From Stegostoma tigrinum (taxonomy: Eukaryota): a DNA stretch of 64,000 nt. The position numbers and the translations under genes were made by a program. Under the pieces are notes generated by a model. That model saw only the letters and a program-made list of their open reading frames with translations. It was not told the DNA's origin and ran no database searches. Positions 3,851 to 64,000 of this stretch are shown here, one piece after another. Each line of letters opens with the position of its first letter. Position 1 is the first letter of the stretch. The stretch lies in the NCBI RefSeq assembly GCF_030684315.1, contig NC_081398.1, positions 6,428,385 through 6,492,384 of the forward strand. The letters are read 5' to 3'.

Positions 3851-6800
3851 CTGGAGTCAGAGAGATTTGGAGATATTAACCAAGGGGATTCTAAAGTGGC
3901 TTGACAGGGTCAACGCTGAGCAAATCGCATTCAGAATATCGCGAGCAGATTTGGGTGTCATACCTAAGGAAGGACGTGCTAATCTTTGAGGAGATCCAGA
4001 GGAAGTTCACAAGAACGATCTCTGGGAGGAGCGGTTGAGAATTCTGCGTCTGTACTTGCTGGAGCTTAAAAGGATAAGGGAGCAGGCATCTGATTAAAGC
4101 TTACAGAGTACAGAAAGGCCTGGATAGAGAGGACACAGAGATGTTTCCATTTGTAGGAAAGATTAGGACCCAGGGAACTGCCTTATAGTGAAGTGGGCAA
4201 CCGTTCAGAACTAAGATGAGTAATTTCTTCAGCCAGAGGGTGGTGAATCTGTGGAACCCATTGCCACAGAAGGCTGTAGATGCTAAGTCCTTGAGTGCCT
4301 CTAAGACAGGAATATACAGGTTCATGATTAGTAAGCGGGATCAAGGATTATGGGGCAAAAGCAGGAGAATGGGATTGACAAACATGTCAGCCATGGACGA
4401 ATGATGGAGCGATCGCAATGGGCCAAAAGGCCTAATTCTGCTCCTATATCTTGTGGTCTTCCAGGATGCCTTTCTCTTTTCCCTTATTTGTTCGTAGAAT
4501 GTGGGTGTCACGAGCTAGGCCAGCACTTATTGCTTGTCCATAATTGACAACAGGGTAGTTAGGAGTCCACCTCATGGACTCACATGTAGGCCTGACCATG
4601 CAAGGATGGCAGTTTCCTTCCCCAAAGGACAATAGCGAAGCAGATGGGTTTTCCCGAACAATTGATAATTATTCATGGTCATCATTAGACTCTTAATTCC
4701 AGAATTTTTTATTGAATTCGAATTCCACCATCTGGTGCAACAGGATTCAAATCCAGATCCCTTGAACATTATCTGGGTCTCTGCATTAACAGTGAAGCAA
4801 TAATACCTCCAGGCCATTGCCCTTCATAATGATTGGTTACCCTTGTGGGGGTGTGCAAGATCAGGCGGCCTCAGCTCAGAATACAGCGCAGCCAACTTCA
4901 GACTGAGATGAGGAGGAATTTCCTCTCTCAGAGGTTGCGAGTCTCTGGAACTCCTTGCCACAGAGAGCTGTGCGGGAAGAGTCCTTGGGTATACTTACCA
5001 CTGAAATAGATTCTTGATCAGTCGGAGAATCAAGGGTTACAGCAGGAACGTGTATGTGAGCAATGTCAGATCAGCTACGATCCAACTGAATGGTGGAGCA
5101 GGCTCAAGGACAAATAGTCTAGTCGTGTTCTCATTTCATATGGGCTCTATAAGGGTCAGTGCACTCAAAGTGTGATCTCTGCTTCTCACTCCACAGATTC
5201 CACCAGACCTGCTGAGTTTCCATAACGCTCTCTGTCTTTGTTGCAATGATATAATTCCTGGACTTGCAGTACTCTCAAACACCAGCACCTTTTTCAGCTC
5301 CAAATTTCCCAATCATTACTGCCAACACAACCTGGTAAATTTAGGCCACCTTTCAAAACTGGGTCTTTTGTGTGCAATGATAGTGGAGACACAGAGAATC
5401 TGTTTCCATGTTTGTTAGAGACAAACTACAGATATTACCTGAAAATTTGTAGGGTTATCCACAAACTGAAATTGAATGAAATAAGGAGGAGAAATCATAT
5501 GGAAGCTGGGGATGACCTAATGATCAGAAAGGTTTGAAAGTGGTTCTGTATGTTTGTACGTGTGTACACATGTGCCTGTGTGTGTGTGTGCACGTGTGTT
5601 TGTGTCAGTGAGATTGTATATGTATGAATGTGTTTGTTTGTGTGTGTGTGTGTGTGTGTGTGTTTAAATCTTCAGCTGTAATTCAGCAGTAACAAACCGG
5701 ACTGTCACAGAAATTCTGCAAAAGCTGAATATTTGCTTTAAAACACACACAGTGAATCAGATCTGAAAATGTGGACTATTTACTAGCTGAATTTGGGATT
5801 GTTCATAGAATTGTGTTGTGTACACAAAGTTGGTCAAATACATAAACATGGTGAACTGAGAGCTCACAATAAAGCTGATGTCAGAGTTCATTAAGACTGT
5901 AATTGCTTGGGGGCAGATGAGAGAAGGTTCATTAGTTTAATTCCAGGGATGTGGGGTCTGTCTGATGGGGAAGGACAGAGCAGTTTGAGCTTTACTGTCT
6001 TTGGATTTCAGAAGAGTGAGAGGGAATCTAATTGCGGTCTATAAGATGTTAAAGGGGATTGACAAAATGGGATAATCTAGAATTAGAGGCCACAGTTTTA
6101 GGATAAGGGAGTGGCAGATTGAAAACAGAAATGGGGAAGGTATGTTGTGAGGCACAGTCTTCTCCCTCTCACCCTGTGCCGAAATGTCTCACCTGGTCCC
6201 CGCATCATAACTCCGTTGTCAATCGCGTTACCATTGTTATAAGGATTGGCCCGTCTTATCAGCCTTCCACTGAATGGGGCATAGATCACTGATCCCTCTT
6301 TGCAGATCACATCAACTCCCAAGTGCCTGTCATTGTCTCTGGACACAAAAGAACATAGTTAGACATCTCCCCTACTATCACACACATTCGCTGAATGAAT
6401 CTTAGAGGCCCAGATAAAGTAGATGTGGAAAATACGGTTCCACCAGTAGAAGAGACTAGGATCTGAGGGAACAGCCTCAGAGTTAAGGGACAACTGTTTA
6501 GAACTGAGATGAGGAGGAATTTCTTCAACCTGAGAGTGGTGACTCTATGGAATTCATTGCCACAGAGGGCTATGGAGGTCAAGTCGTTAAGTATCTTTAG
6601 GACAGAAACAGAGTTCTTGATTAGTAATAGGGATCAAGGGTTATGGGGAGAAAACAAGAGAATGAGTTTGAGAAACATATCAGCCATGATCGAATGGCGG
6701 AGCAGACTTGATGGGCCAAATAGCCTAATTCTGCTCCGAGATCTTATGGTCTTATGGTCACTCAGGCTGAACCTTGATTGATGATGCTGTCATTTTAAGA

Positions 6801-24230: not shown

Positions 24231-25366
24231 ACCCCAAAGAGTTTGGCCCATATGTTGGGCTTGCAACCCTGGGAACTATTAACAATGCCTAGCACTGGAT
24301 TAATGTTCCAAGTTGATGATGAAGTTTAATTGCCTCTTCCTTTTTTCTGTCACTTTAATGAATCTCATGTTGCTTTTTTCCACAAAGATGGAAAGTGAAA
24401 TCCTCCAGAGGCCCTCCTTTCGCACACTTTCTGAAGTCAAAGCCACATTTCTGCACTGCATCTTATGAACACAAACCACAGACATAATGGAACTGAACTT
24501 CACCTGGACTGTTGGCAGCTCAAAGATAATCTGTGCTTATTTTTCTATGTCCTGCCAGGGTGAAAATTCTGATCCAAAATTTTCCATCACAGTTCATTTA
24601 GTAAACAAATCTTCAATCTCAACCATCAACTGTGCATCTCTAAACTAGATTGGTGTCTATAGGTGTCAGGCCCAAATCTTCAAACCTTACCCAGTCTAGA
24701 CACTCACTGACAATGGATCTGTTGTACTGGTGCAAAGTAGGTGCTGCTTAAGCCTTCCTACCACTATCAAAAATGCATGATTACATTTCTGTTCCATCTT
24801 AAACTGCAATGGTCCTATCTCAGGCCCAGCATGTTTTGGCACAACAAACAAGGACAGGACTTGTACAATTAATGGTGGAGCCTTTGGGTAGTGGTGTCGA
24901 ACCCTAGGCGTTCAAGCACAAAACCCCTGGAAGTTTGCGTCATATGTAAACAGGGTGGTTTAAAAGACATTGCTTGAGATCTAGTGACCATCAGGTTAAA
25001 CATGTCTCTCCAATGATGTGAGTGGGGGCATGGCAACTTAACAACTAAATATATGCTGTTCAGCTGAACTGTTTCCTGAGGGACGAAGTCGCACACTTAC
25101 CCATTCTCTGAACAACAATGTTTCTCCAGAGTTCCCATCTAGATTTAATTGTGACTCTTCCAGATCAATACAGAAGCCTAAGTTCTGTTCTCCAGTAGAA
25201 GTAGGGCCATCTTCTCGATCTATCTGTTGATCTCTCTCATTGTCTTCTATCAGATCATCCCTCTGCCTCCTGGGGAATGTGTGCATGTTTTCTGATGATT
25301 TATCCTCATTCGTATTTAAATATCTGGTGACTCTGAGTCCGTGGACACCTTCAATGACTTATCCAG

Positions 25367-25870
25367 TCCACTGCATACCAGAGGTCCACATCATCCAGCC
25401 AACTTTAGGTGCATTTAAGTCGTCATTGGATAAGCATATGGATGTACATGGAATATTGTAGGTTAGATGGGCTTGAGATCGGTATGATAGGTCGGCACAA
25501 CGTCGAGAGCCGAAGGGCCTGTACTGTGCTGTAATGTTCTATGTTCTATGTTCTATGTTCTCTCATTGTAAGCGAGGGAGAAGTTATCAAACTGAACTGT
25601 ACCTTGCGAACAGCAGTTATAAGCCTGGAAGAGCTCACCTTCACCTGGATGAGACGGGGTACTGAGGTTTCCGGCCATGTAATGGCTAATGTTTCTGAAA
25701 TGCTGCACTGTGACAGCCAGGACCCATGAGTCTCTGTGTTGGCTCATTTACCGACTCAATCCTCTGTCAAGTATCAAGCAAGGAAGTCTGAAGGATGCTG
25801 AGACCTACCAATGCCACATTGAAGTCCTCAAAGCCAGCTGATGGCAATGGATCTGTCCTGTCAATACAGG
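25367..25870 (+). pseudogene. Disrupted V-set Ig exon
   Basis: tatccag|TC; VHCIPEVHIIQP[CR1 insert]SLIVSEGEVIKLNCTL...FTWMR...DP*VSV...(frameshift)SIKQGSLKDAETYQCHIEVLK(frameshift)GNGSVLSIQ, then G|ctaagg where gtaagg is expected. B-strand C, C-strand W, DxxxYxC and the J-like GxG are recognisable. Confidence 0.85.
25402..25560 (+). mobile_element. Short young CR1 3' insertion inside the V exon
   Basis: Near-identical to 15661-15813; (atgttct)n tail; gcca microhomology at the 5' junction. Confidence 0.9.
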
Positions 25871-26404
25871 CTAAGGGCTCATTAACTCTTGATCTCCTCT
25901 TCCAAACACTTTTGTTCGCCTCTGTCTCAAATTGTGTTTGCCTCTTCTCTGCCCACTTCCTTCTAGCTTGCTTCTTCCCCTCTCTGCAAGTTGGGAACAC
26001 CCACCCAGTGTTTGGGGAGTGAGTGACTCCGGGCCGAACGACGGGATTTTAGGGGAGCAGCTGGGGAGGACAGAGTAAGTCGGCAAGCCAGTCAACTCCA
26101 AGGAGAGGTAACACAAACTCCCATCTCTGAATTCATTGCTGGAATATCACTGGAAGAAAACCAGAGAGTGCTGGAGAAACTCAGCAGGGTCAGGGAGCAT
26201 CAGTGGAGAGAGAAAAAAGAGTGAACATCTCAAGCCCAGTGATCCTTCTTCAGAGTGGATATGGGATATTTCACCGGGATGGATAAGGGTTTCTTTGTAG
26301 CCAATGCCAGATGTAATGTATTTAACCTGAAATGATTATTTCGAACACTTGAATGGATTGTCATTAACACTTTCAGATGGGTGGATCAATCAGTTCAGCA
26401 GTGC

Positions 26405-28124: not shown

Positions 28125-28230
28125 ACCTCACACCCCTCAGTTCTTTCTCCTAACCTTTCTTTCCTATCACATCTTCCCCTTTCTGTCAGCGGCTGATTCA
28201 CATTGTATTGTTCTTTTGGCAAGGTGTTAG

Positions 28231-28371
28231 CAAAACAGATTTCTCTTTTCGGAAATAGGACACCAAGCTCCTTGTTCCTTGCTGTGCTGTTTGCAGTTGC
28301 AACCTCAGTTTTGCTGCTAGTCTTCATCATTGCTTGTTTGAGCTACATTCTGGTGTCAAAATGGAACAAAG
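28231..28371 (+). pseudogene. Transmembrane exon of the Ig receptor pseudogene (5' boundary uncertain)
   Basis: RTPSSLFLAVLFAVATSVLLLVFIIACLSYILVSKWNK G|gtgaat; no charged residue in the TM. Confidence 0.65.
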
Positions 28372-28499
28372 GTGAATCGAATCTCACTTGATAGTTGTGG
28401 TGATGAATATTTTTCACGTTGCTTTATTTTGGGGATCGGTAAACTCTGCCTGCAATAGGCTGTCTAGAAATGAGGGCTCAAATCTCACATAAACCAAAA

Positions 28500-32480: not shown

Positions 32481-33039
32481 GTAGTTAGGGACAGGCAATA
32501 TTGACTGGCCCTATCAATGATGTCCAGATCCCATGAATACACAGAGGCAGTTGAAGGTCTTCAAACAGATCCATTAAACTGCTAGATTAGTGCAGATTGC
32601 AAAGCAGGGGATGAAACTCTCTTTCTGTCTCTTTCTCCCCACTATCTCGTTTTAATCTGAAGTTTGTGTGTTATTCTCTGTGCCCTTGGGCCTAAACATG
32701 CTCTGACCAATCCAATTCTTATGTAAATAATTGGCCACAGGTCGCCTGCTTTGTTCTTGTTTGTAATTCCTGCATCCTGCACCATTCGCCTGAAGCTACC
32801 TTCCGGAGAGTTCTTTTCCCCGAACCACCCTCTGCAATATCCAGCGGGCAGCAATGAGTCCTGGGACATCATTGAATGATGCAACAGGCTTGAGGGGCTG
32901 AATGGCCCACTCCTACGCCTATTTTCTGGGTTTCTATCCCACTCCAGGGTTGCTTCTGTTTAACACTTGAACCTCATTGTCACGCTCTTTGTCTGCAGGA
33001 ACTCCTCAGGACAAGACACTAAGGTGAGAGGCTCAGTAC

Positions 33040-33655
33040 CTGGATATTACTAAACTAAGAAGGGTTCAAAAAAGATTTACCAGGATGTTGTAGGGACTGG
33101 AGGGTTTGAGTTGTAAGAAGAAGCTGGGACATTTTTCCACTGGAGCATAGGAGGTTAATGGGTGACCTTATAGCGGTTTATAAAATCATGAGAAACATAG
33201 ATAAGGTGCATAACAAAACTCCTTTCTCTCAGTTGGGGGTGTCCAAAATTAGAGGACGTAGGTTTAAGGTCAGAGGGGAAAGATTTAAAAGGGACTCGAG
33301 GTGCAACACAGAGGGTGGTGCATGTTTGGAAGAGCTGCCAGAGGAAGTGGTGGAGGCTGCTACAATCACAACATTTAAAAGACATTTGGACAGGGACATG
33401 AATAGGAAGGGTTAGGAGAGATATAGGCCAAATGCTGGCAAATGAAACTGGGCTAATTCCGGATATCTGGTTGGCATGGACAAGTGGCCCAAAGGATCTG
33501 TTTGTGGCTCAATGACATTTGATTAAGCATGTGAATAGGAAAGGTTCGGAAGGATATGAGCCAAATGCAGGAAAATGGGACCAGATTAGGTTGGGAAACT
33601 CGGTTGGCATGGACGAATTGGACCAAAGGGTCTGTTCTGTGCTGTATGCCATTAT
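33040..33655 (+). mobile_element. CR1 LINE 3' fragment with a duplicated tail
   Basis: GDLIAVYKIMRNIDK...TFKRHLDRDM; the tail occurs twice. Confidence 0.8.
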
Positions 33656-39910: not shown

Positions 39911-40011
39911 TGAGAAAAACAAATATGCAACTATTCCAACAGAATGTAATATCATTGCACAGTGCTTAAAAACACTGCTAAGCTCAATTTATTCACTCTT
40001 CCTCCAATCAG

Positions 40012-40310
40012 GAAGCCTGGTGTATGGTCTTCCCCCATACACTGCGTCATGGAGAAGCAACTGCTATGGTGATAAACACAGGATTTCTATCGACTCTGGC
40101 CCCGTTCCGTTGTCAATGATCCTGCTGAGACCTGGAGGAAATGCAGAGAAACACAGAGCGTTTATTGTGTCGAAGGAGGCCACTCTGCCCTTCTGCAAGA
40201 GTCGCTCCGCTCCCCCCACCTTATTCTCCATAATCCCGCAGATCCTGTTTGAGATAACAATCCAGTTCCCAGCACCCATTCCTCACTCACCTGAAGCGAT
40301 GAAGAAATGA
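40012..40310 (+). pseudogene. Putative terminal cytoplasmic exon
   Basis: ctcttcctccaatcag|GA (phase 1); open frame SLVYGLPPY...PPTLFSII...AMKK*; non-repetitive sequence. Confidence 0.4.
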
Positions 40311-48738: not shown

Positions 48739-48963
48739 TTACCTTCTCATTTCCAACAATGCACACGGGCGGGTGAAAGACGGGTGGCTACGTAGATGTT
48801 GGTCGCACTCCAATGTTCCACTGGTGATTTGCGAGTAGACCTCCCCATCCTCGGTTGGGGTTTGAGACATTATCGATGCCATCCCCAGCGCTGTGATTGC
48901 ACTGTACAAAACAGTGTCAGACTCCCCCGCCTCATCGACCTGGTCCTGAGACACCTCAGTGAG
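48739..48963 (-). CDS. Terminal cytoplasmic exon with two tyrosine motifs
   Basis: ctttccag|CTC (phase 0): LTEVSQDQVDEAGESDTVLYSAITALGMASIMSQTPTEDGEVYSQITSG...MRR*. Confidence 0.7.
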   Translation of the reverse strand, partial: LTEVSQDQVDEAGESDTVLYSAITALGMASIMSQTPTEDGEVYSQITSGTLECDQHLRSHPSFTRPCALLEMRR

Positions 48964-51900
48964 CTGGAAAGGTCATGCAGATGTTAAACAGTCAGTTGCA
49001 CATCACTGTTTGACTGAGGAGTTCATTTTAACTCAGAGGCCGGTCAGCCCATTAATCCTGCCTTGCTATTCTACATCATGGTTCCTCAATGATCCACCAC
49101 TGATTAGACACAAGTCAGGAGTGTAAGAAAATAATCCCTGCTTTGCCTGGATGTGTACAACTCCACCAACACTCGAGGCTTAACACCATCCCGAACAAAG
49201 CAGCCCCCGCTTGACTCAGCACCACTTCCACAAACATCCTCTCCCTCCACCTCCGATGCTCAGTAGCAGCAGCGTACCATCTAAAGATGCACCGCAGAAA
49301 TTCACCAAAGATCCTCAGACAGCACCTTCCAAACCCACAACCACTTGAAGGATAAGGGCAGCAGATACATGGTAACACCACCCCCTGCACACTCTGCTCG
49401 CCATCCTGATTTGGAAATATAGCAGCTGTTCTTTTAGTATTATTGGGGCAAAATCCTGGAGATCCCTCCCTACAGCACATGGACATCAGCGATTCATCAA
49501 ACAGAAAGACCTAAAGGTTCAGTTACATAGTTTTTTTTGAAAGGTGCATCACATGTAGGCAGGATGGTTAAGAAGGCATTTTACATGCTTGCTTTCATTG
49601 CTCAGACCTTTGAGTATAGGAGTTGGGATGTGATATTGTACAGGATATTGGTGAGGCCTTTTCTGGAATACTGTGTCCAGTTCTGGTCATGCTGCCATAG
49701 GAGGATATCCTTCAGTCTGAGAGGGTTCAGAAAAGAATGCTGCCAGGACTGGAGGGTTTGAGTTATCTGGATAGCTGGGAGTTTTTCTTCACTAGAGTGT
49801 GGGAGCCTGAGCAGTGTCTTTATAGAGGTTTACACCGTCATGAGGGGTATAAATAAGGTGAGTGGCAAGGGTCTTTTCCCTCGGATGGAAGAGTTCAAAA
49901 CTAGGGAGCATCAAAATCTTGAAGGTGATAGGAAAAAGATTTATAAAGGACCTGAATGGAAACATTTTCACAGTGTGTGGTTCGTATGTGAAGTGAGCTG
50001 CCACAGGAAGTGGTGAAGGCAGGTCTGATTACAACATTTAAAAGACACTCAGATCGGTACATAGATAGGAAAGTTTGAGAGGGTTATGGGCCAAATGCAG
50101 CCAAGTTTAGTTTGGGAAACCTGGTCACCATGGACAAGTTGGACCGAAGGGTCTGTTTCTGAGGAAGGGTCACTCGAACCGACACATTAACTCCTAACTT
50201 CTCTCCATTGGTCCAGCCGGACCAGCTGACCTTTTCCAGGAATTTCTTTTTCTTGTTTCTGATGAACAGCAACCGCAGTCCTTTCGGTCTGTTTCCGGGC
50301 TGCATGTCCTTAAGATGGCTAAGCACCACCTTCTCCAGGGGCGGTTAGGGACAGTCAAAAGTACTGGGCCGGCCAACAACGCCCACATCCCATGAGTAAA
50401 CGGGGGCGAAAAAAATCCTCTATTATCTCTGAATCCTTTAACGTAATTGACTTCCAGAAGTCCAAGATAATAAAATGTGAGGCTGGATGAACACAGCAGG
50501 CCAAGCAGCATCTCAGGAGCACAAAAGCTGACGTTTCGGGCCTAGACCCTTCATCAGAGAGGGGGATGGGGAGAGGGAACTGGAATAAATAGGGAGAGAG
50601 GGGGAGGCGGACCGAAGATGGAGAGTGAAGAAGATAGGTGGAGAGAGTATAGGTGGGGAGGTAGGGAGGGGATAGGTCAGTCCAGGGAAGACGGACAGGT
50701 CAAGGAGGTGGGATGAGGTTAGTAGGTAGATGGGGGTGCGGCTTGGGGTGGGAGGAAGGGATGGGTGAGAGGAAGAACCGGTTAGGGAGGCAGAGACAGG
50801 TTGGACTGGTTTTGGGATGCAGTGGGTGGGGGGGAAGAGCTGGGCTGGTTGTGTGGTGCAGTGGGGGGAGGGGACGAACTGGGCTGGTTTAGGGATGCAG
50901 TGGGGGAAGGGGAGATTTTGAAACTGGTGAAGTCCACATTGATACCATTAGGCTGCATGGTTGCCAGGCGGAATATGAGTTGCTGTTCCTGCAACATTCA
51001 GGTGGCATCATTGTGGCAGTGCAGGAGGCCCATGATGGACATGTCATCTAGAGAGTGGGAGGTGGAGTGGAAATGGTTTGCGACTGGGAGGTGCAGTTGT
51101 TTGTTGCGAACTGAGCGGAGGTGTTCTGCAAAGCGGTCTCCAAGCCTCCGCTTGGTTTCCCCAATGTAGAGGAAGCCGCACCGGGTACAGTGGATGCAGT
51201 ATACCACATTGGCAGATGTGCAGGTGAACCTCTGCTTAATGTGGAATGTCATCTTGGGGCCTGGGATAGGGGTGAGGGAGGAGGTGTGGGGGCAAGGGTA
51301 GCACTTCCTGCGGTTGCAGGGGAAGGTGCCGGGTGTGGTGGGGTTGGAGGGCAGTGTGGAGCGAACAAGGGAGTCACGGAGAGAGTGGTCTCTCCGGAAA
51401 GCAGACAGGGGTGGGGATGGAAAAATGTCTTGGGTGGTGGGGTTGGATTGTAAATGGCGAAAGTGTCGGAGGATGATGCGTTGTATCCGGAGGTTGGTAG
51501 GGTGGTGTGTGAGAACGAGGGGGATCCTCTTAGGGCAGTTGTGGCGGGGGCGGGGTGTGAGGGAAGTGTTGCGGGAAATACGGGAGACGCGGTCAAGGGC
51601 GTTCTCGATCACTGTGGGGGGTAAGTTGCGGTCCTTAAAGAACTTGGACATCTGGGATGTGCGGGAGTGGAATGTCTTATCGTGGGAGCAGATGCGGCAG
51701 AGGCGGAGGAATTGGGAATTCCCAATTCCCAAGTCTCCCGTATTTCCCGCAACACTTCCCTCACACCCCGCCCCCGCCACAACTGCCCTAAGAGGATCCC
51801 CCTCGTTCTCACACACCACCCTACCAACCTCCGGATACAACACATCATCCTCCGACACTTTCGCCATTTACAATCCAACCCCACCACCCAAGACATTTTT

Positions 51901-54900
51901 CCATCCCCACCCCTGTCTGCTTTCCGGAGAGACCACTCTCTCCGTGACTCCCTTGTTCGCTCCACACTGCCCTCCAACCCCACCACACCCGGCACCTTCC
52001 CCTGCAACCGCAGGAAGTGCTACCCTTGCCCCCACACCTCCTCCCTCACCCCTATCCCAGGCCCCAAGATGACATTCCACATTAAGCAGAGGTTCACCTG
52101 CACATCTGCCAATGTGGTATACTGCATCCACTGTACCCGGTGCGGCTTCCTCTACATTGGGGAAACCAAGCGGAGGCTTGGAGACCGCTTTGCAGAACAC
52201 CTCCGCTCAGTTCGCAACAAACAACTGCACCTCCCAGTCGCAAACCATTTCCACTCCCCCTCCCACTCTCTAGATGACATGTCCATCATGGGCCTCCTGC
52301 ACTGCCACAATGATGCCACCCGAAGGTTGCAGGAACAGCAACTCATATTCTGCCTGGGAACCCTGCAGCCTAATGGTATCAATGTGGACTTCACCAGTTT
52401 CAAAATCTCCCCTTCCCCTACTGCATCTCTAAACCAGCCCAGTTCGTCCCCTCCCCCCACTGCACCACACAACCAGCCCAGCTCTTCCCCCCCCCACCCA
52501 CTGCATCCCAAAACCAGTCCAACCTGTCTCTGTCTCCCTAACCAGTTCTTCCTCTCACCCATCCCTTCCTCCCACCCCAAGCCACACCCCCATCTACCTA
52601 CTAACCTCATCCCACCTCCTTGACCTGTCCGTCTTCCCTGGACTGACCTATCCCCTCCCTACCTCCCCACCTATACTCTCTCCACCTATCTTCTTTAGTC
52701 TCCATCTTCGGTCCGCCTCCCCCTCTCTCCCTATTTATTCCAGTTCCATCTCCCCATCCCCCTCTCTGATGAAGGGTCCAGGCCCGAAACGTCAGCTTTT
52801 GTGCTCCTGAGATGCTGCTTGGCCTGCTGTGTTCATCCAGCCTCACATTTTATTTCTTGGAATTCTCCAGCATCTGCAGTTCCCATTATCTCTGACTTCC
52901 AGAAGTCTCCTGCTTTTTGTCTGGAACCTACTTAATGGTTGAGGGATGTGCCTCTCTCCTCCTCATGCTTTCTGCAGTTTTGATCTTGATTCTGCAAGAG
53001 ACTCATGAACATATAGAGGGAAGTCAACGCCGACAAGCGGGGGGGGAATAGCCATTTGGAACTGGCTTATCTGCCTCTGATTAAATCCCTTACTGCTCGA
53101 CAATCTTCTAAATCATCTCTCAGCCAGCACAGAGCTTGAGGGATAAGGAGCTGGTAAAGTTAGAAAGCAACAATAATTGCAAAGATGTAACACCCTCTGA
53201 TTCAAGAAATCCCTCCTCATTCTCTGTCCTGGAGGACTTGCCGTTATTCTAAGATTGCACTGTCTCATCCTATCTTTGCCATTCAGGGGAAATACCCTTG
53301 TCTACATCGTGCCACACCTTGTGAGCATTGTGCAAGGCTGGACGAGATCATTTCTCTGTTAGTCTGTGGAATGCAGATATATGGGGACGGCAAACTTCGT
53401 TTTAACCGGCACTTTCCGATCAAACGGCAGCCTCGGTAACATAGCGACTGCGACATCTGAGACAATAAAATGTGAGGCTGGATGAACACAGCAGGCCAAG
53501 CAGCATCTCAGGAGCACAAAAGCTGACGTTTCGGGCCTAGACCCTTCATCAGAGAATAAAATATTACATTTGCGTGTACACCAGGCACTACGATTCTTCT
53601 ACTTACCATTTGTATTTACATTGATTTTAGGAAGTTTTTACATTGATTTTTTTGAACCTTGCTGATACCTCAAAATTTCATTTGGTCAGGATTGACAGCG
53701 TTTCTCTGTGCCCATTGATTATCCGGAATATTTAGCGAACAGGCATGTCGTGGTCCACTAGGTGCCAGTTAATAAAAGGCGCTACGTATGGAGGTCGGCC
53801 GCAGATCAACCAATGAATGGTGAAACAGGCTCAAAGAGCTGAATGGCCGACTTCTGCTCCTAATAAGGAATTTGGAGCTGTTACAATTGGCCCCACATTC
53901 CCCCTCCCCCCCCACAACTTATTGCCTCACCCTCCAAACAGGATGGGAGGATTTACCAGAATAAATTTACTTGGAATAACAGACACATCAAATAGGGACA
54001 CAGAACCAAACTATGAAAATTGGGATCGAGGGTTGATTAAGAAAATAAGATTAGAAATTGTACAGGCCCCTAAGAGGGGAGAGGGAAAACCCCTTTCTTA
54101 AATGTTGCTGAACAGAGAGACGTGAGAGGGTAGGTTCACTGTTCCCTGAAAGTGGAGTCCCAGGCAGACAGGATAGTGAAGAAGGCATTTAGTACGCTTG
54201 CCCTATATTGGTCAGTGCACTGAGTGTAGAAGTTGGGATGTCATGTTGTGGACTTACAGGACATTGGTCAGGCCACTTTCAGAATACTGTTCAATTCCAG
54301 TGTCCCTCCTATAGAAAGGATGTTGACAGGGTTCAGAAAAGATCTACAAGCGTGTTGGCAGGGTTGGACGGTTTGACCTATAGGGAGAGGCTAAATAGGC
54401 TGGGGCCATTTTCCCTAGAGTGTTGGAGGCTGAGGGGTGACCTTATAAAGGTGTATAGAATCATGAGGGCAATAGATCGGCTGAATAGCCAAGGTCTTTT
54501 CTCCAGGGTACAACAGTCCAAAACTAGAGGGGCATAGCTTTAATGTGAAGGAAAGGGAAATATTTAGAAGAGACCTAAGGGGCAACTTTTTCACACAGAG
54601 GGTGGTGTGTGTATGGAATGAGCTGCCAGAGGAAGTGGTAGAGGCTGGTACAATTATTGTATCAGAGATAATGGGAGCTGCAGATGCTGGAGAATCCGAG
54701 ACAACAAAGTGTGAAGCTGGATGAACACAGCAGGCCAAGCAGCATCTTAGGAGCTCAGAAGCTGAAGATGAAGGGTCTAGGCCCAAAACGTCAGCTTTTG
54801 TGCTCCTAAGATGCTGCTTGGCCTGCTGTGTGGGTACATGAATGGGAAGTGTTCACTGCGATATGGGCTGGACTAGATTAATTTGGGATAGTGGTCGGCG

Positions 54901-57900
54901 TGGATAAGTTGGACCAGAAGATCTGGTTCCATGCTGTATGGGTCTATGCATCTGTGTATGGAACTCAATCACCCCTTGCACATTTGACATAAAACTGTCT
55001 CTCTCTCTCTCTCTCTGTGTCTTTCTCTGTCTCTCTCCTGTAATGTGATCTGCTTCTAAAACATCAATATTTATTTGCCTGAGTTCTGTAGCTTCTATTT
55101 CTTTCTCCACAATAAAAACTGATGTGGAATATTCACTTAATATCTCTCCTATCCAAAGAATCTCTTTGGATTATCCTTAACCTGATCTGCCAATACTATC
55201 TCATAACCCTTCTTTTTCTGTCCTTCAGGATGGAAAGAGATCCTTCTTTGCCAATCGTAACTCCAAACTAAACTAGTCCCAGCTACCTATTCCTGGTCCA
55301 TACAAGACCAAAGCATTCCTACTCATGTACTTATCCAAATGTCTTTTAAACGTTGTAACTATACCCATATCCATCACTTTCTCAGGGAGTTCATTCCACA
55401 CATGAACTGCTCTCTGTGTGAAAAGATTCCCCTCAGGTCTTTATTAAATCGGTCTCCTCTCACCTGAAAAATATGCCCCCACTCTTGAAATCCCCCACTC
55501 TAGGGAAAAGACACCTGCTATTTGTCTTATCTATATCATTCATTATTTTATAAACCTCTACAAGGTCACCTCTCAACCTCTACTCTCCAGTGATAAAAGT
55601 CGCACCCTGTCCAGTCTTTCTTTATAACGCAAACCTTCCATACCCGGCAACATCCTGGTAAATCTCTTCTGAACTCTCTCCAGCTTAATAATACTCTTCC
55701 TGTGACAGGGTGACCAGAAGTGGACACAGTATTCCAGAGGACGCCTCACCAGTATCCTGCACAAGTTCAATAATAACATCCCAACTTAACAGACTGAGCA
55801 ATGAAGGCAAGTATACCAAACGTCTTTTTAACCATCCTGTCTATATGTGATTATTCAAGGGATTCATTTGTACTCAGAGCTGTCTATCTCTAATATAAGA
55901 TTCTCTTTTATTCTTGACGAGAATGTCAGTGTCTTTATTCATCTATTATTCCTCAATCTCACCTGCCTCACCTTAACAGGAACATAGTTATTCTGAACTT
56001 TCATCATCATGCTTTTGAAAGCCTCTCTCCCCAGACCTTGTTGAGATTCTCCAGCAACTTCCTCATGCTCTGACGCCAGATCACAGGGCTCATCTCTTCC
56101 TCCAGCTTCCTGTGATACTGATGCCGATCCTGCAAGACATTCCTCAACGTTAGGAGAGAAGACAAAGCCAATGAGAGGAGGAGAGACAGACTTTTGGAGT
56201 CGGTTCATCTGTCTCTTAATTACACAAGAGCCCTTCAATCAAATCCTGAACTGTCCCTTAGTAAATGCAGAGCCTGGGGGCTAAGGAGCTAGGAAAGCAG
56301 AACATCGTGGCTCAGTGGTTAGCACTGCTCCCTCACAGTGCCAGGGACCCAGATTCAATCCCAGCCTCGGGTGAGCATCAGCGTGGAGTTTGCACAGTCT
56401 CCCCGTGTCTGCGTGGGTTTCCTCTCACAGTCCAAAGATGTGCAGTTTAGGTGGAGTTGGCCATGAGCTAAAATGCCCCATTGTGACCTGGGATGTGCAG
56501 ACATGTTAGGTTAACTATGCTAAAAGCAGGTTATGGTGGTAGGGTGGGATGATCTTTGAAGGGTCAGTGCAGACTTAATGGGTCAAGTGGCCGTTTTTTG
56601 CAGTGCACGACTTCTATGAAACTGTGGCTGGATAATTGGAAGAACGGGCTAGTTTCTCAACAGCAAGGCTTTGGAATTCTGAAGTACAAAGGGACTTTAG
56701 ACTCTTAGTTCAGGATTCTCTTAAAGTTAACATGCAGGTTCAGTTGGCAGTTAGGAAGCCAAATGGAACTTAGCATTCATTTTGAGAGAGCTAGAATACA
56801 AGAGTAGGGATGCACTGCTGAGGCTGTATAAGGCTCTGGTCAGACTGCATTGCTTCAGTGGCAGGATCCTAGGAGAAAGCGCGAGGACAGCCTGGGAAGG
56901 TAAGCTTCCACCCAATAAATTTGGGAGTTGACTAACACCTGAGACCCTACACGCGCATTGTCTCCCACCCTTCCACCTCCTCTAACCTAAGAATAACAAC
57001 TAAGTGTGGTGAGCAGATAAGCTATTTACATTTTTTTTTCCTCATCTCTTTGTTATCTTTCAGGGTGATCACCGAGACACCAAATCCTCTGGGAAGGGGT
57101 TGGAAGGCAAAGTTTATTTCAGTATATAACGGAGTAAACTTACTCCGTTACTACTGCAGCAAACACTGCGAAATTTTTAAAAAACTAATTAATTTTAAGT
57201 AATTAACTAAATAGAGATGGCAGGCCAGGTCATGTGTTGTAGCTGTATGATGTGGGAGCTGGCTGATCCCATTGACAACGGCAGTGACCACATCCGCAGC
57301 AAGTGTTGGCTGTTTGAGGAGCTCCGGCTCAAAATTGATGAAGCTGGAATCCGAACTGTAATCACTGCTGCACATCCGGGAGGGGGAGAAATACCTGGAT
57401 ACTGTGTTCCAGGAAGCAGTCCTACCTGGTAGATTAACTAATGTTAATTCAATTGGTGGGCAAGGACAGCAGTGTGTGACTGCGAGTGAGGCAGACAGAG
57501 GGACCCTGCAGACAGGAACAGAGGAGCCGCAGCCCTTGACATTGTCCCACAGGTATGAGGCACTTGCTCCCTGCGTGGATGAGGAGCAGGGCTGCAGGAA
57601 GGATGGGTCAACTGACCATGGCACCACGGCCCAGCGGCCATTCAAGAGGGAGGAGCTAAAAGACAGACTGTAGTTGTAGGGGATTCCATCATCAGGGGGA
57701 TAGACAGTATCCTTTGTGAGCAGGATAGAGAATCCCACATGGTGTATTGCCTGCCTGGTGCCAGGGTGCGAGGCATCTCTGACCGGCTTGAGAGGATACT
57801 AGAGAGGGAGGGAGAGGATCCAATTGTTGTGGCCCACGTAGGTATCAACAATATAGGCAGGGCTGGGAAAACAGGCCTGTTTCAAGATTATGGAAAGCTA

Positions 57901-60900
57901 GGAACAAAATTAAAAAACAGGTCTTCAAGGGTCATAATCTCTGGATTGCTGCCTGAGCCACATGTAAATTGGCAGAGGGAGGCGAGGATCAGGGAAGTAA
58001 ACATGTGGCTAAAATAGTGGTGTGGAAGAGAGAGTTTCCTTTTCATGGGGCACTGGCATTAGTTCTGGGACAGGAGGGATCTACCGCTGGGATGGACTCC
58101 ACCTGAACAGGGCCAGGCCCAGTGTTCTGGCAAAAAGGGTAAATAGGGTGGTTCATAGGGCTTTAAATTAGTAAGGAGGGGGGAAGGGAGAAGTGAGCGT
58201 AGAGGGAGAATAACAATTAGTGTAAGGCAAAGCAGCAGGTTAGCAGGTGACGAGGAAGCTTCAACTTCATGGAAAATCAGGAAAAAAGTTAAAGGGAGGA
58301 GAACTCAAGAGCTGTTAGTAATGGAGGTGATAGGGCCCAAAAAGAAGGCGCAAAAACTGGCATTAGGGCACTTTATCTGAATGCTCAGAGTATTCGAAAC
58401 AAGGTGGGTGAGTTGACGGTGCAAATCGTGGCAAATGGGTATGATTTAGTGGCCATTACAGAGACACAGCTACAGGATGGTCATGACTGGGAGTTATATA
58501 TCCAGGGGTATCAAACTGTTCTGAAGGACAGACAGAAAGGTGAGGGAGGTGGTCTCACTCTGATTTTTAAGGATAATATCAGGGCAGTAGTGAGAGATGA
58601 TATCGGCTCTACTGAACAAAATGTTGAATTCATTTGCGTGGAAATTAGGAATAGCAGGGAGAAAAAGTCATTCATGGGTGTGGTCTATAGGCCACTAAAT
58701 AATGACATCGTGGTGGGGAGGGCAATAAACATAGAAATAGCGAATGCATGTAAAAATGGTGCAGCAATTATCATGGGGGATTTTAATCTACATAACGATT
58801 GGTCAAACCAGGTCGGTCATGGAAGCCTTGAAGAGAGGTTCACAGAATGCGTCTGCGATAATTTCTTTGAACAATATGTAATGGAACCTACGAGGGAGTA
58901 AGCCATCCTAGATCTAGTCCTGTGTAATGAGACAGGAATAATTAATGATCTCACAGTTAGGGATCCTCTCGGAAGGAGCAATCACAATGCAGTCGAATTT
59001 AAAATACAGATGGAGCGCGAGAAGGTTAAATCCAGTACCTACGTCCTGTGCTTACACAAAGGAGACTATGAAGGAATGAGGAAGGAGTTAGCTAAGGTTG
59101 AATGGGAACAAAAACTTTATGGTGGGTCAATTGAGGAACAGTGGAGGACTTTCAGAACAATTTTTCACAGTGCTCAGCAGAAGTATATTCCAGTGATAAG
59201 GAAGAACTGTAGGAAAAGAGATAGTCAACCATGGATGTCTGAGGAAATAAAGAAAAGTATCAGACTGAAAAAAAAAAGCACATACAAAAAAGCAAAGAGT
59301 AGTGGGAAACTAGTAGACTGGGAACTCTTTAAAGGCCAACAGAAAGCCACAAAAGAACTTATAAAGAAAGATAAGATAGATTATGAGAGTAAACTAGCTC
59401 AGAATATAAAAACAGGCAGCAAAAGTTTCTATAAATATGTAAATCGTAAAAGTGTGGCAAAGGTAAACATTGGTCCTTTAGAGGATGAGAAGGCCAATTT
59501 AATAACGGGGAATGAGGAAATTAAACAATTATTTCATGTCGGTCTTCACAGTGGAAGACACAAATAACATGCTGAAAACTGAAGGCAAGAAGTTTATCGC
59601 AGGTGAGGACCTAGAAACTAATGTTATCACTAAGGAGGCAGTGCTGGGCAAACTAATGGGGCTAAAGGTAGACAAGTCTCCTGGCTCTGATGAAATGCAT
59701 CCTAGGGTACTAAAAGAGGTGATAGGGGAAATAGCAAATGCACTAGTAATTATGTACCAAAGTTCACTGGACTCTGGGGTGGTTCCCGCAGATTGGAAAA
59801 CAGCCAATATGCTGTCACTGTTTAAAAAAGGAAGTAGACAAAAAGCATGTAACTATAAGCCAGTTAGCGTAACTTTGGTAGTGGGGGAAATGCTTGAATC
59901 TATCATTAAGGAAAAAATAGCAAGACATCTGGATATAAATTGTCCCAGTGGGAACACCCAGCATGGGTTCATGAAGGGTAAGTCATGTTTAACTAATTTA
60001 GTGGAATTCTTTGAGGACATTACTTGCATGGTGGACTATGGGGAACCTGTGGATGTGGTGTATCTGGATTTCCAGAAGGCATTTGCAAGACCAAAAGCTG
60101 CTACATAAGATAAAGTTGCATGGTATTACAGGTAATGTATCGGCATGGATAGAGGATTGGTTGACCAGTAGAAAGCAAAGACCAGGGGTAAATGGGTTTT
60201 TCTGGTTGGTGGTTAGTGGCTAGTGGTGTGCCTCAGGGATCAGTGTTGGGACCTAAATGATTTCAAATTTACGTGGATGATTTGGAGTTGGGGACTAAGT
60301 GTGGTGTGTCAAAATTTGCTGATGACACTAAGCTGTGTGGTAGAGCAAAGTGTGCAGAAGAAACTGAAAGTCGACAGAGGGATATAGAGTCTAGGTGAGT
60401 GGGCAAAGGTCTGGCAGATGGAGTACAATGTTGATAAGTGTGCGGTCATCCATTTTGGTAGGAATAACAGCAAAATGGACTATGTTTTAAATATAGTAAA
60501 AATATTTTGAAAAGTAAAAAATTGTAGCACACTGCTGTGCAGAGGGACTTGCCCATGAATCGCTGAAGGTGGGATTGCAGGTGCAGCTGGTAATTAAAAA
60601 GGCAAATGGAATTTTGTCTGCCATTGCTCAAGGGATGGAATTTAAAAACAGGGAGGCTATGCTGCATCTATATAGGGTCCTGGTGAGGCCACACCTGGAG
60701 TATTGTGTGCAGTTTTGGTCTCCTTACTTGAGAAGAGATATACTAGCACTGGAGGAGGTGCAGAGAAGATTCACTCGGTTGATTCCAAAGTTGAGAGGGT
60801 TGGATTATGAGGAGAGACTGAGTAGACTGGGATTATGCTCATTGGAATTCAGAAGAATGATGGGAGGTTTTATAGAAACATATAAGATTCTGAAGGGAAT

Positions 60901-63900
60901 AGATAAGGTGGAGGCAGGGAGGTTGTTTCTGCTAGCAGGGGAAACTAGGACTAGAAGGCATCACCTCAAAATAAAGGGAAGCAGATGTAGGACTGAGGTC
61001 AGGAGGAATTTTTTCACCCAAAGGGTTGTGAATCTGGGGAATTCCCTGCCCAGTGAAGTGGTTGAAGTTACCTCACTGAATGTTTTTTAAGGCAAGGCTA
61101 GGTCAATTTTTGAAGAGTAAAGGAATTAAGGGTTATGGTGAGTGGGCGGGAAAGTGGAGCTGAGTCTCAAAAACATCAGCCATGATCTTATTAAATGGTG
61201 GGGCAGGCTGAAGGGGCCGGATGGCCCACTCCTGCTCCTAGTTCTTATGTTCATATGTTATATTTTTGGTCAGAAAGTAAGAATGATTCCAGGGACTGGA
61301 GCAGGCCATTCAACCCATTGGATCCATTCTATCATTGAGCCAGATGGCTGCTCATGGTATCCAGAGTGAGGAAGAGGATGGGAATTGGAATGTGGTAAGC
61401 CCTGCTCAGCTGGGATTTCTTTCAACATCCTATGGATTTCAGGGCTAATGGAGAATTTTCCAAGGAGTGGCACCAGGCGACCGTCTACTAACTGCAATGA
61501 AACCTTCTAGATGTTCTGATTTGAAAGGATACACTTGCAGGGTGGGAGGTAGAAGGTATGGTGGATGAATTTCCTTGGTGTCATGCACAATTTTCTAGAG
61601 AATTGCCTTTGATTCCACAACATCAGATGGAAAGACATCAGAAAATCCGGTCTAACATCTCAGACCAGGATTTGTCCTTGAGCATTCAGAACTAGCACCG
61701 CCCCCCCCAACCCCCGCCAAACCCCCGATAACCCTGACGCCTGTAAAAAAAGATGCTACAATAATTAGCTCACGAATGTACACACTAGTCAGTTTCCTCT
61801 CTTTGACAATGAAGATTATTGCAGCCAGCACGCATAGGAGGATTCCAGAGACCAGCCAAGCTACCGTCGGCATCCATTCCATATCAGTGTAAAATTCCAG
61901 AGGGGCCTTTCCTGGAAAGGAGAAAGAACCATTGGGTTAGACAGGAACCAACTCCGGGAAAAGCGCTTTCTCACTCCCTCTGCTCACGCCCTCAACTGAA
62001 TTCAAAGCTTGCTGGAGATTTCATTCCAGACAGCATTCTGAGGGAGATATCGGAGGAGTAGGGTTGAGGGTAACAGAAAGACAGCCACGTGTACTACCCG
62101 CGAACCCCTGCCCTCTGTTCTCCTCCTCTCCAGCCCTGATTTCAACCATTATCCTCTCTCTCTTTCTGTCTCTCTCTCCTCCTCTCTCTCTCTCTCTCTC
62201 TAATTCTCTCTCTCTCCACTTCTCTTTCTATCTCTCCCTCTCTCCAACCCAACTCGGTACAGTCATAGAGCACAGAAACGGACCCTTTGGCCCAACCAGT
62301 CCACACTGACCATAATTCGAAACTAAACTAGTCCCACCTGCCTGTGCTTGGCCCACATCCCTCCAAACTCTTCTCATTCATGTGCTTAAATAAATGTCTT
62401 TTAAATGTTGTAACTGTACCTAAATCCACCATTTCCTCTGGCAGCCCATTTTATGTGCGAACCAGTCTGTGTAAAAAAAAATTGCCCCTCGTGGCATTTA
62501 AAAATATTTCTCCTCTAACCTTAAAATAATATCCCCTAGTCTTGAAATCCCCCACCCTAGGGAAAGACTCTCTCTTTCTCTCAGTCTCTCTCTTTCTCTG
62601 ACTGCCTCAGTCTCTCTCTCTCTCAACTCTTTCCCTCTCTTTCTGTCTCTCTCAGTCTCTGTTTCTCTGTCTTTCTCTCCCTCTCTCTCCCCATGTCTCT
62701 CCCCGTTTCTCTTCCTCTCCCTCTGCCCTACCATCTGTGTCTGTCTCTCTCTCTCTGTTTCTTTCTCTCCCCTCTCTGTTCCCCTCTCTCTTCCCTTCTC
62801 GCGCTCTCTCTCTCTCTGTCTTGCTTGTTGCATCTTTGGCTCTCTCCCTCTCCTCTTTTGTCTGCCTCTTTTTCTGACATTCTCTCTCTCATCGTTTCGC
62901 TCTTTCCCTCCCTCTCTGTCTCCCTCCCTCTCGCTCCCTCTATCTCTCTCTCCATCTCAATCTATCTCTGTCTGTCCCTGTCTGTTTCTCACTCAAGGCT
63001 CACACTCAGTGTGTTCCCAAGGGAGTCCTATCCTATCAGACACTCACTCATCTTTCAGATAGTGGCAATCTGAATTCACAAACTACCCTCCTTACCCAGT
63101 CTGATCTACACATGACTCCAGACACTACAACCAGTGTGGCTGACTCTTAAATGCCCCCCTGCAACAGCTGACCAAGCCCCTCAAGGGCAAACAGGGAAGG
63201 GCAATAAATGCTGGCCCAGCCAGACACACCCACATCCTGTGAATGATTTAAAACAGAATCAAATCTGATCCTGAGTAATTGCGTCTAGAAGCTGCTCTGT
63301 CACTGAAGTTAAGCTGACAGTGTTTGAGGCAACTGACTAATGCCTATGGCACAGGAAGAGGACCTTCAACCCATCCATGGATGGAACCAGAAAGAGGCTT
63401 TTTGGCCCATCTGTGGTGGATTATAGCACAGACAGAGGCCCTTCTGCCCATCTGTGGGGTTCCACAGTGCAAGATGGGGCCTTTCAGCCCATCTGTGGAG
63501 ATCTAGAGCATAGGAAGATGCCATTCTGCCAATCTGTGATGGTCTGGAGCCCAGGAAAAGGCATTTTAGCCCATCTGTGGAGCGCTATAGTAAAAGATGA
63601 GGCTTTTCAGCCCATCTGTGGAAGTCTACAGAACAGAAAAGGGCCATTCAGCCCATCTATATTAATCTCATTTCCCAGTACACTTGGCCCACAGCCTTGG
63701 TGTCGCAAGAGCACATCTCAACGCTTCCTCAAGGTGATGAGGGGTTTCTGCCTCTCCCACCCACACAGGCAGTGAGTTCCAGATTCCCCACCACCCTCTG
63801 GGCAAATCCCACCACCTTCGTTCAATGAGGGGGAAACAAATGCTTGCAATCCTTGAGTCTGGCGAGTCCAAGGAACAACTGAAAAATTGCGGCCTGTGCC

Positions 63901-64000
63901 TCCTCAATGTCCACCCTCCCTTCCTTCAAAATCCTCGGAATACCTGATGCCTCAACTATCAAAACTGTTCCGTTCCCCTGTCCTCTCAGAATTGGGATGG
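48739..64000 (-). CDS. Partial V-set Ig receptor gene with ITIM-like tail (5' part beyond the window)
   Basis: V-exon end 64000-63944, TM exon 61911-61774, tail exons 56129-56037 and 48963-48739. One phase junction is unresolved. Confidence 0.7.
49115..49495 (+). mobile_element. L2/CR1-clade LINE fragment
   Basis: Homologous to the 2560-2990 and 17167 copies. Confidence 0.7.
49495..50160 (+). mobile_element. CR1 LINE 3' fragment
   Basis: VKKAFYMLAFIAQTFEYRSW...LEYCVQFWS. Confidence 0.85.
50528..50559 (-). ncRNA. Minimal hammerhead ribozyme motif
   Basis: CU-CUGAUGA-AGGG-UCUAGG-CCC-GAAA-C-GUC-AG. Confidence 0.7.
52764..52795 (+). ncRNA. Minimal hammerhead ribozyme motif
   Basis: CU-CUGAUGA-AGGG-UCCAGG-CCC-GAAA-C-GUC-AG. 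Confidence 0.7.
53464..53562 (-). mobile_element. Tiny Penelope-end insertion carrying an intact hammerhead motif (53523-53554)
   Basis: Matches 50469-50560; flanked by aataaaat on both sides. Confidence 0.8.
54100..54950 (+). mobile_element. CR1 3' fragment with a small fold-back Penelope end (~54658-54831)
   Basis: LRGDLIKVYRIMRAIDR; the insert has cacagcaggccaagcagcatcttaggagc and its reverse complement. Confidence 0.85.
55230..55870 (-). mobile_element. CR1 LINE 3' fragment
   Basis: LEYCVHFWSP...[16 protein letters not shown]. Confidence 0.85.
56037..56129 (-). CDS. Putative 93-nt cytoplasmic exon
   Basis: cctaac branch point...cttgcag|GAT...AAG|gtctgg. Phase 0 reads DRHQYHRKLEEEMSPVIWRQSMRKLLENLNK; phase 1 is also open. 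Confidence 0.5.
56303..56618 (+). mobile_element. V-SINE (HE1-like)
   Basis: tRNA-like head plus V core. Confidence 0.8.
56855..61257 (+). mobile_element. Near full-length CR1 LINE (5' UTR, ORF1 Zn-finger + SGNH esterase, ORF2 APE + RT), inactivated
   Basis: ORF1 MAGQVMCCSCMMWE..HIRSKC, VVVGDSIIRGID, CLPGARV; ORF2 YLNAQSIRNK, AITET, IIMGDFN, QHGFMKGK, YLDFQKAF, GVPQGSVLGP, FADD; (ttatgttc) tail; several stops and frameshifts. Confidence 0.95.
61774..61911 (-). CDS. Stalk + transmembrane exon
   Basis: ttctttctcctttccag|GA; KAPLEFYTDMEWMPTVAWLVSGILLCVLAAIIFIVKERKLTSVYI C|gtgag; uncharged TM followed by a basic stop-transfer. Confidence 0.8.
62262..62565 (-). mobile_element. CR1 3' tail inside a CT-rich tract (62150-62990)
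   Basis: Similar to 34143-34450. Confidence 0.8.
63340..63660. repeat. ~40-bp minisatellite (gcccatctgtggagtctagagcacagaaagaggcctttca)
   Basis: About eight units; continues into a minus-strand CR1 tail at 63660-63810. Confidence 0.85.
63944..64000 (-). CDS. 3' end of a V-set Ig exon (G strand)
   Basis: IPILRGQGNGTVLIVEAS G|gtattc; phase 1, in frame with the TM exon. Confidence 0.8.

Follow-up and report, generated by a model that had tools for sequence, protein, structure and literature searches.

The CD28 family comprised nine genes in a 2024 survey (Quiniou et al. 2024, PMC11599192), which defines it by an architecture of variable (V) domain, transmembrane (TM) segment and tyrosine-bearing tail, and by a proline-containing FG loop followed by GxG. 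The same survey describes CD28HL3, a CD28H paralogue bearing inhibitory motifs of the immunoreceptor tyrosine-based kind (ITIMs), as undetected in cartilaginous fish (Chondrichthyes), and recruitment of SHP phosphatases through tandem SH2 domains has been described for PD-1 (PMC12151841). Here we describe a gene on the minus strand of a 64,000-nucleotide stretch, referred to as the window, of the 3.2-Gb genome of the zebra shark Stegostoma tigrinum (NC_081398.1, a 15.9-Mb contig labelled C58; C58:6428385-6492384). The gene is predicted to encode a 319-residue type I membrane protein with one variable–joining, V(J), immunoglobulin (Ig) domain, an uncharged TM span and a two-tyrosine tail of inhibitory type; it is a real, conserved and unnamed elasmobranch receptor of familiar inhibitory design, probably related to the CD28/PD-1 checkpoint receptors and matching none of the nine described genes.

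Gene model, orthologues and tail

Five exons joined through GT-AG sites form a 960-nt open frame of 319 residues without an internal stop, with tail tyrosines at residues 188, 238, 265 and 288 (Table 1; position numbers refer to the window unless a contig or L-locus is given). A preliminary description of the window had noticed a V-exon end with a J-like GNGTVL motif joining in phase to an uncharged TM exon, and the motifs VLYSAI and EVYSQI with their tyrosines 23 codons apart; both observations were borne out at the positions given there. Extension to the right recovered the leader and a V exon that is intact, where a disrupted one had been considered. A direct join of TM exon to tyrosine exon is rejected: it pairs a phase 1 end with a phase 0 start and stops at residue 191. 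The first cytoplasmic exon, missed in the preliminary description, restores the frame because the TM exon leaves phase 1 and the tyrosine exon enters in phase 0. This additional exon could end at either of two donors, after 55972 or 9 nt further on after 55963, and is 85% identical to the whale shark model, against 83% for the TM exon, whose span VAWLVSGILLCVLAAIIFIV holds no charged residue. The tyrosine exon had also been taken as terminal; it is likely the last coding exon but not the terminal one, because no A(A/T)TAAA lies within 740 bases 3′ of its stop, a consensus donor AAG/GTGAGT stands 38 bases past that stop (after 48701) and a further exon lies at 40131. This arrangement suggests a 3′ untranslated region (UTR) spliced through that donor to the 40131 exon with its AATAAA; that exon corresponds to the final 20 residues in the whale shark model and would belong to the gene. 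We consider the gene almost certainly real and use of its tyrosine exon highly probable. A rearranging or germline-joined Ig or T cell receptor (TCR) gene was rejected as an identity, the TM exon following directly on the V exon in the model and its orthologues.

Table 1. Exons and motifs of the V(J) receptor gene.
Feature	Position	Strand
Leader exon, 67 nt	L002:9206-9140, ~4.2 kb past the right end of the window	-
V(J) exon, single, 363 nt, intact	L002:5306-4944; start 306 bases past the right end of the window	-
V(J) exon 3′ end, IPILRGQGNGTVLIVEAS, phase-1 donor	64000-63944	-
Stalk and TM exon, 138 nt, phase 1/1, uncharged membrane span, no YxxxxT motif	61911-61774	-
First cytoplasmic exon, phase 1 in, phase 0 out, contains Y238 (NNYVPV)	56129-55963	-
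Second cytoplasmic (tyrosine) exon, phase 0, 74 codons and stop	48963-48739	-
VLYSAI, canonical ITIM (Y265)	48912-48895	-
EVYSQI, ITIM-like YxxI (Y288)	48843-48826	-
Terminal exon (probable), carrying 3′ UTR or, with the tyrosine exon skipped, a short coding end	40131-39988, AATAAA at 39993	-

An orthologue search returned 210 matches at E 0.001, and the 150 listed include four shark orthologues (whale shark LOC125487770, Chiloscyllium chiPu_0019843, Scyliorhinus scyTo_0024916 and horn shark XP_067879962) and two from rays (sawfish LOC127586521 and stingray LOC132396365), all six labelled ‘uncharacterized’ or ‘hypothetical’ in databases. Together with the zebra shark gene they form one starred clade (97/95) in a tree of 41 V-domain rows, hand-picked from 94 by removing long and redundant rows (the 94-row set served for a quick tree only). 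The whale shark orthologue is 78% identical in the V domain. The zebra shark genome has one copy: of the 13 matches among the 150 scored of 175 candidates, the other 12 are only 26–34% identical. The orthologue and the neighbouring cluster genes described below likely share one contig in whale shark, horn shark, sawfish and stingray, so that LOC125487770, XP_067879962, LOC127586521 and LOC132396365 resemble the zebra shark gene in tree position and in genomic company. These four are known from automatic models only, and their tails differ from that of the zebra shark gene in the number of tyrosine motifs.

The V exon encodes C26, W41 and C95, an FG loop reading QIERPIP, a G strand reading GQGNGTVLIV and four N-glycan sequons, and was assigned to the Pfam V-set (E 2.8e-14); a structure model built on a 40-row alignment reached a mean predicted local distance difference test score (pLDDT) of 95.6. 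The pattern YYCxxxxE(R/K)PxPI..GxGxGT is present in all seven orthologues, with the FG loop in the form (Q/H)(I/V)E(R/K)PxPI and E100, P102, P104 and I105 invariant (7/7).

As defined in PMC12151841, which also gives the consensus for the switch motif of the immunoreceptor tyrosine-based kind (ITSM), an ITIM reads (S/I/V/L)xYxx(I/V/L). Of the tandem ITIM-like pair in the preliminary description, VLYSAI alone fits this consensus; EVYSQI is neither ITIM nor ITSM because of the Glu at −2. The motif pair is in itself common: the six frames of the 459 kb around the locus contain 97 cases of an ITIM with YxxI/L/V after it, two of them on the minus strand within 40000-61773. The tyrosine exon stands above chance because it is homologous to the tail of the horn shark orthologue. 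Here VLYSAIT...EVYSQIT...ECDQ aligns with VLYNEIT...QVYSEIS...ECDQ of XP_067879962; when all 11,867 open frames of the 459 kb are compared with that tail the exon ranks first, its score was reached by 0/5000 shuffles, and BLASTP gives E 2e-6 with 21/57 residues identical. The distal motif, YS(E/Q)I, is the best conserved, being kept in horn shark, sawfish and stingray, three of the four other orthologue models with a tail; the whale shark model lacks it, and those of Chiloscyllium and Scyliorhinus do not extend far enough for a judgement. The first cytoplasmic exon gave no BLASTP alignment with the horn shark protein, and the exon starts are similar by eye.

The intron before the tyrosine exon holds two retroelement-like frames in opposite orientation (289 and 332 codons, 50500-52850) flanked by a repeated short unit; repeated sequence makes up ~80% of the 459 kb.

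Placement beside the CD28 family and competing identities

Set beside the family definition, the gene has the IgV–TM–cytoplasmic plan with a single V domain, a proline motif followed by GxG in the FG region, and the tail motifs VLYSAI and EVYSQI with homologues in horn shark. The V-domain phylogeny called for in the preliminary description gives the gene and its orthologues their own clade, which falls among CD28H, CD28HL1 and CD28HL2 rows and a group from contig C14 at a fork that is not starred (84/87); the tree contained no CD28, CTLA4, PD-1 or verified CD28HL3 rows. Row labels for CD28H, CD28HL1 and CD28HL2 are by-eye matches to CDR3 and tail motifs in supplement S4 of PMC11599192, plus one database name (platypus TMIGD2), and one row labelled CD28HL1 is TMIGD2-like in its source. 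CD28H/TMIGD2, CD28HL1 and CD28HL2 share with this gene a proline FG loop followed by GxG, but they have EIP(P) loops and YxNx or YESF tails where this gene has ERPxP and ITIM-type tyrosines; the zebra shark genome has its own CD28H-, HL1- and HL2-like exons on C38 and C1. The nearest named Atlas clusters for the horn shark protein, PDCD1, CTLA4-like and CD28 (0.95–0.96), provide a lead only. The gene is best assigned to the CD28H-like group, as a lineage of elasmobranchs outside the nine described CD28-family genes. On C14, three VJ exons at C14:31995352-32552869 (L043, L049 and L050) have EIPPP or TIPPPP loops, and no named-gene match was made for them; two of the three fall in a starred clade apart from CD28H, HL1 and HL2.

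We give a probability of roughly 0.62 to the reading that the gene encodes an inhibitory CD28H-like receptor on shark leukocytes that recruits SHP phosphatases. By analogy with PD-1, which resembles it in having one V domain, two tail tyrosines and likely SHP recruitment, the conserved FG loop would be bound by a cell-surface ligand, the B7 family being the likeliest source in view of the other CD28-family V domains; a Src-family kinase would phosphorylate Y265 and Y288; SHP-1, SHP-2 or SHP-2L would dock on the phosphorylated pair through its two SH2 domains; and the phosphatase would open and dampen leukocyte activation.

Several observations count against this reading. No transcript of the gene came to light; the runs listed for the tyrosine exon are four from one study, none recorded as RNA. 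In the whale shark RefSeq model the 40131 exon follows directly on the first cytoplasmic exon, leaving no ITIM. A canonical first ITIM is common to horn shark only, the sawfish and stingray models carrying just the distal motif, and the third horn shark motif, SLYTQI, aligns here with HLRSHP, which has no tyrosine; another frame at the equivalent place reads IYVATRL, which may reflect an old frameshift or an assembly error. The ERPxP loop differs from the EIP of CD28H, HL1 and HL2 and also from the PPP form. Deep forks of the V-domain tree are open, the family placement is weakly supported (84/87), and the approximately unbiased (AU) test does not reject a grouping with the cluster genes nearby (p-AU 0.19). 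The fold matches TCR V-alpha as well as it does CTLA-4 or CD28: in the structure search CTLA-4 scored TM 0.79 and CD28 Z 13.5 (root-mean-square deviation 2.5, 111 aligned), neither separated from TCR V-alpha. TMIGD2 and NKp30 were not among the PDB sequence or fold matches shown, which were headed by generic V domains, antibodies and TCR alpha; this absence excludes nothing.

Carpet sharks may instead skip, or be losing, the tyrosine exon, the product being a 259-residue ITIM-less decoy or adhesion protein. The whale shark join is in frame here too and would end the protein at residue 259, the third tyrosine has been lost, neighbouring genes are pseudogenes, and the tyrosine exon alone as a query matched 0/37 candidate proteins in a weak search that missed the horn shark protein as well. 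We nevertheless regard this outcome as improbable, the exon being open for 74 codons behind a good acceptor in the right phase and keeping, against horn shark, both tyrosines and their +3 Ile despite 37% surrounding identity. The two isoforms could also coexist, in which case the 259-residue form may be a non-signalling product beside the full-length receptor.

About equally doubtful is that the gene is the missing cartilaginous-fish CD28HL3, relocated from its usual neighbours. It resembles CD28HL3 in its single VJ domain, GNGT G strand, uncharged TM and two inhibitory-type tyrosines; its first motif fits [IV]xYxxL loosely, with Ile at +3, its second, EVYSQI, compares with VTYxxV/VLYSxI, and the piranha and catfish tails given in PMC11599192 (VLYAAL..VLYSDV and VVYAAV..VLYSDI) resemble VLYSAI..EVYSQI. 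In the best tree alewife P0090 (XP_076126410), by eye a teleost CD28HL3, is sister to the clade (69/52), although the trees held no verified CD28HL3 row. The tyrosines, however, are 23 codons apart here against ~33–39 in teleosts and more in bichir and sterlet. The synteny that defines CD28HL3 in PMC11599192 (PRKAB1, PLA2G1B and TMEM233) is also elsewhere: of 4, 13 and 30 matches for the three families, with gene names inferred through Pfam families and adjacency, none lies on C58, and the block is found on C34, with PRKAB at 40.54 Mb, a CD225/TMEM233-type exon at 40.49 Mb (48 kb from PRKAB) and PLA2 exons at 39.79 Mb. C34 carries a VJ–TM gene of its own 1.9 Mb from PRKAB (C34:42434594-42441215 (+), loci L045, L085 and L086), with tail motifs SIYATL, VEYSTV and MVYTPL, orthologues in Chiloscyllium (XP_072443033) and great white (XP_041058996/7), and a grouping with P0090 that is not rejected (p-AU 0.15). 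Since the block lies on C34, which has this other ITIM-bearing VJ gene, the C58 gene is probably not CD28HL3, and the C34 gene is the best candidate for it in cartilaginous fish. Ig light-chain-like V exons adjoin the C34 gene.

Slightly less probable still, the gene might be the inhibitory member of a fast-changing innate cluster (NITR-, PILR- or Siglec-like) sensing microbes, glycans or major histocompatibility complex (MHC) molecules, its CD28H likeness being superficial. Its position in the midst of related VJ genes and pseudogenes, the orthologues of which show the same tail plan, the PILR-like exons 130–160 kb away and the p-AU of 0.19 speak for this, whereas the single copy, the FG loop unchanged from sharks to rays, the lack of a charged-TM twin among the cluster proteins inspected and the best tree, which separates the gene from the cluster clade, speak against it.

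Identity with shark PD-1 or NCR3 (NKp30) under another name is very remote: the VJ exon, the tyrosine spacing and the nearness of PDCD1 in the Atlas search favour it, but the shark PD-1 sequences in the literature read YGC(Q/E)L...KKANATN, lacking prolines and GxG, and their tail reads MDYAVL..SCYATI, the present gene has no ITSM, by-eye comparison of V FG and tail motifs with published catshark, skate and epaulette shark sequences excludes PD-1, and the present gene has an orthologue of its own in the catshark genus, separate from PD-1. NKp30 shares the non-rearranging single VJ exon but has a charged TM and a short tail, unlike the uncharged TM and long inhibitory-type tail found here. NCR3 is described as MHC-linked (PMC12227049) and is unlikely because the gene lies off C44, the contig that holds 36/36 MHC class I matches, and because its TM is uncharged; an MHC class II search was blank.

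The view of the preliminary description that this is an uncharacterised chondrichthyan checkpoint-type receptor is supported: the V exon is intact, and one-to-one orthology was not found with PD-1, NCR3, CD28H or CD28HL1/2 or, less firmly, CD28HL3. Ohta 2019 reportedly catalogued VJ genes and may mention the locus, as may Flajnik 2012. No paper on the gene turned up in literature listings, a judgement made on the listings, most subscription papers being outside reach. Across all nine PMC11599192 files there was no match to the gene's FG-loop motifs, to the genera Rhincodon, Pristis, Hypanus and Heterodontus or to the accession of the whale shark protein, though motifs split across alignment lines could escape, and PMC10751288 gave no match for the gene's terms.

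As an inhibitory CD28H-like receptor, the gene would add an inhibitory-looking lineage kept from sharks to rays and lying outside the synteny blocks named in PMC11599192. A bolder reading, less likely than not, makes it a tenth, ITIM-bearing CD28-family lineage, the stable anchor of an undescribed elasmobranch inhibitory complex of single- and multi-VJ receptors with PILR-like and B7-like genes, on a small chromosome matching human 7q22; were the C34 gene the true CD28HL3, the tally of inhibitory CD28-type checkpoints in sharks would then come to at least three, CTLA4-like genes not included. Single-exon VJ genes bear on the origin of antigen receptors. The locus extends the inventory and gives testable targets; it brings no new mechanism.

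The surrounding VJ receptor cluster

VJ receptor genes and pseudogenes form a cluster around the gene, and exons of PILR-like and B7-like type lie next to it. Within the window, a multi-V receptor pseudogene on the plus strand (24388-24735, 25559-25896, ~28225-28373 and 32998-33042) has three stops in V1, a stop and a frameshift in V2 and a stop in a cytoplasmic exon, with a TM exon also present; its V1 is 80% identical to whale shark LOC125487821, which is intact there and carries IVYLLV/SAYTEI. Farther off are an open VJ exon with an LEPLP loop at C58:5727313-5727639 (-), orthologous to XP_067879631, and a frameshifted copy of it ~100 kb left of the locus at C58:6380260-6380712 (-). The tails of several cluster proteins follow the same plan, with two or three tyrosines (for example, VLYAVL/TAYAEI/SVYTVV).

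Two further V exons, of B7/butyrophilin-like type, stand to the right of the receptor's V exon at distances of 29 and 97 kb (C58:6521292-6521699 (-) and 6589491-6590069 (+)) and are possible candidate ligands; the first is nearest CD276, and the second has no PDB match at 1e-6. Three PILR-like V exons occupy C58:6624413-6659581 (L015-L019; PILRA E 1.7e-19): one has a stop, one is cut short and one is intact with an uncharged TM-like exon near 6657190. A Bin3/MEPCE-type exon lies at C58:9.41 Mb, and PILR and MEPCE adjoin at human 7q22; correspondence of C58 to the 19q13.2 LIPE block was rejected, LIPE being on C53. Cysteine-rich exons at C58:6679536-6683529 (-) are PLAC8/cornifelin-like by eye, and the piece tested had no Pfam match at 0.001. 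A LECT2-like exon at 6191-6340 (-) in the window (E 3e-12 to human LECT2) is followed leftward by at least five further LECT2-like pieces, with copies at C58 6.24–6.42 Mb. The horn shark model XP_067879862 has the same gene order and fuses a LECT2-like exon to a multi-V receptor, probably as an annotation artefact.

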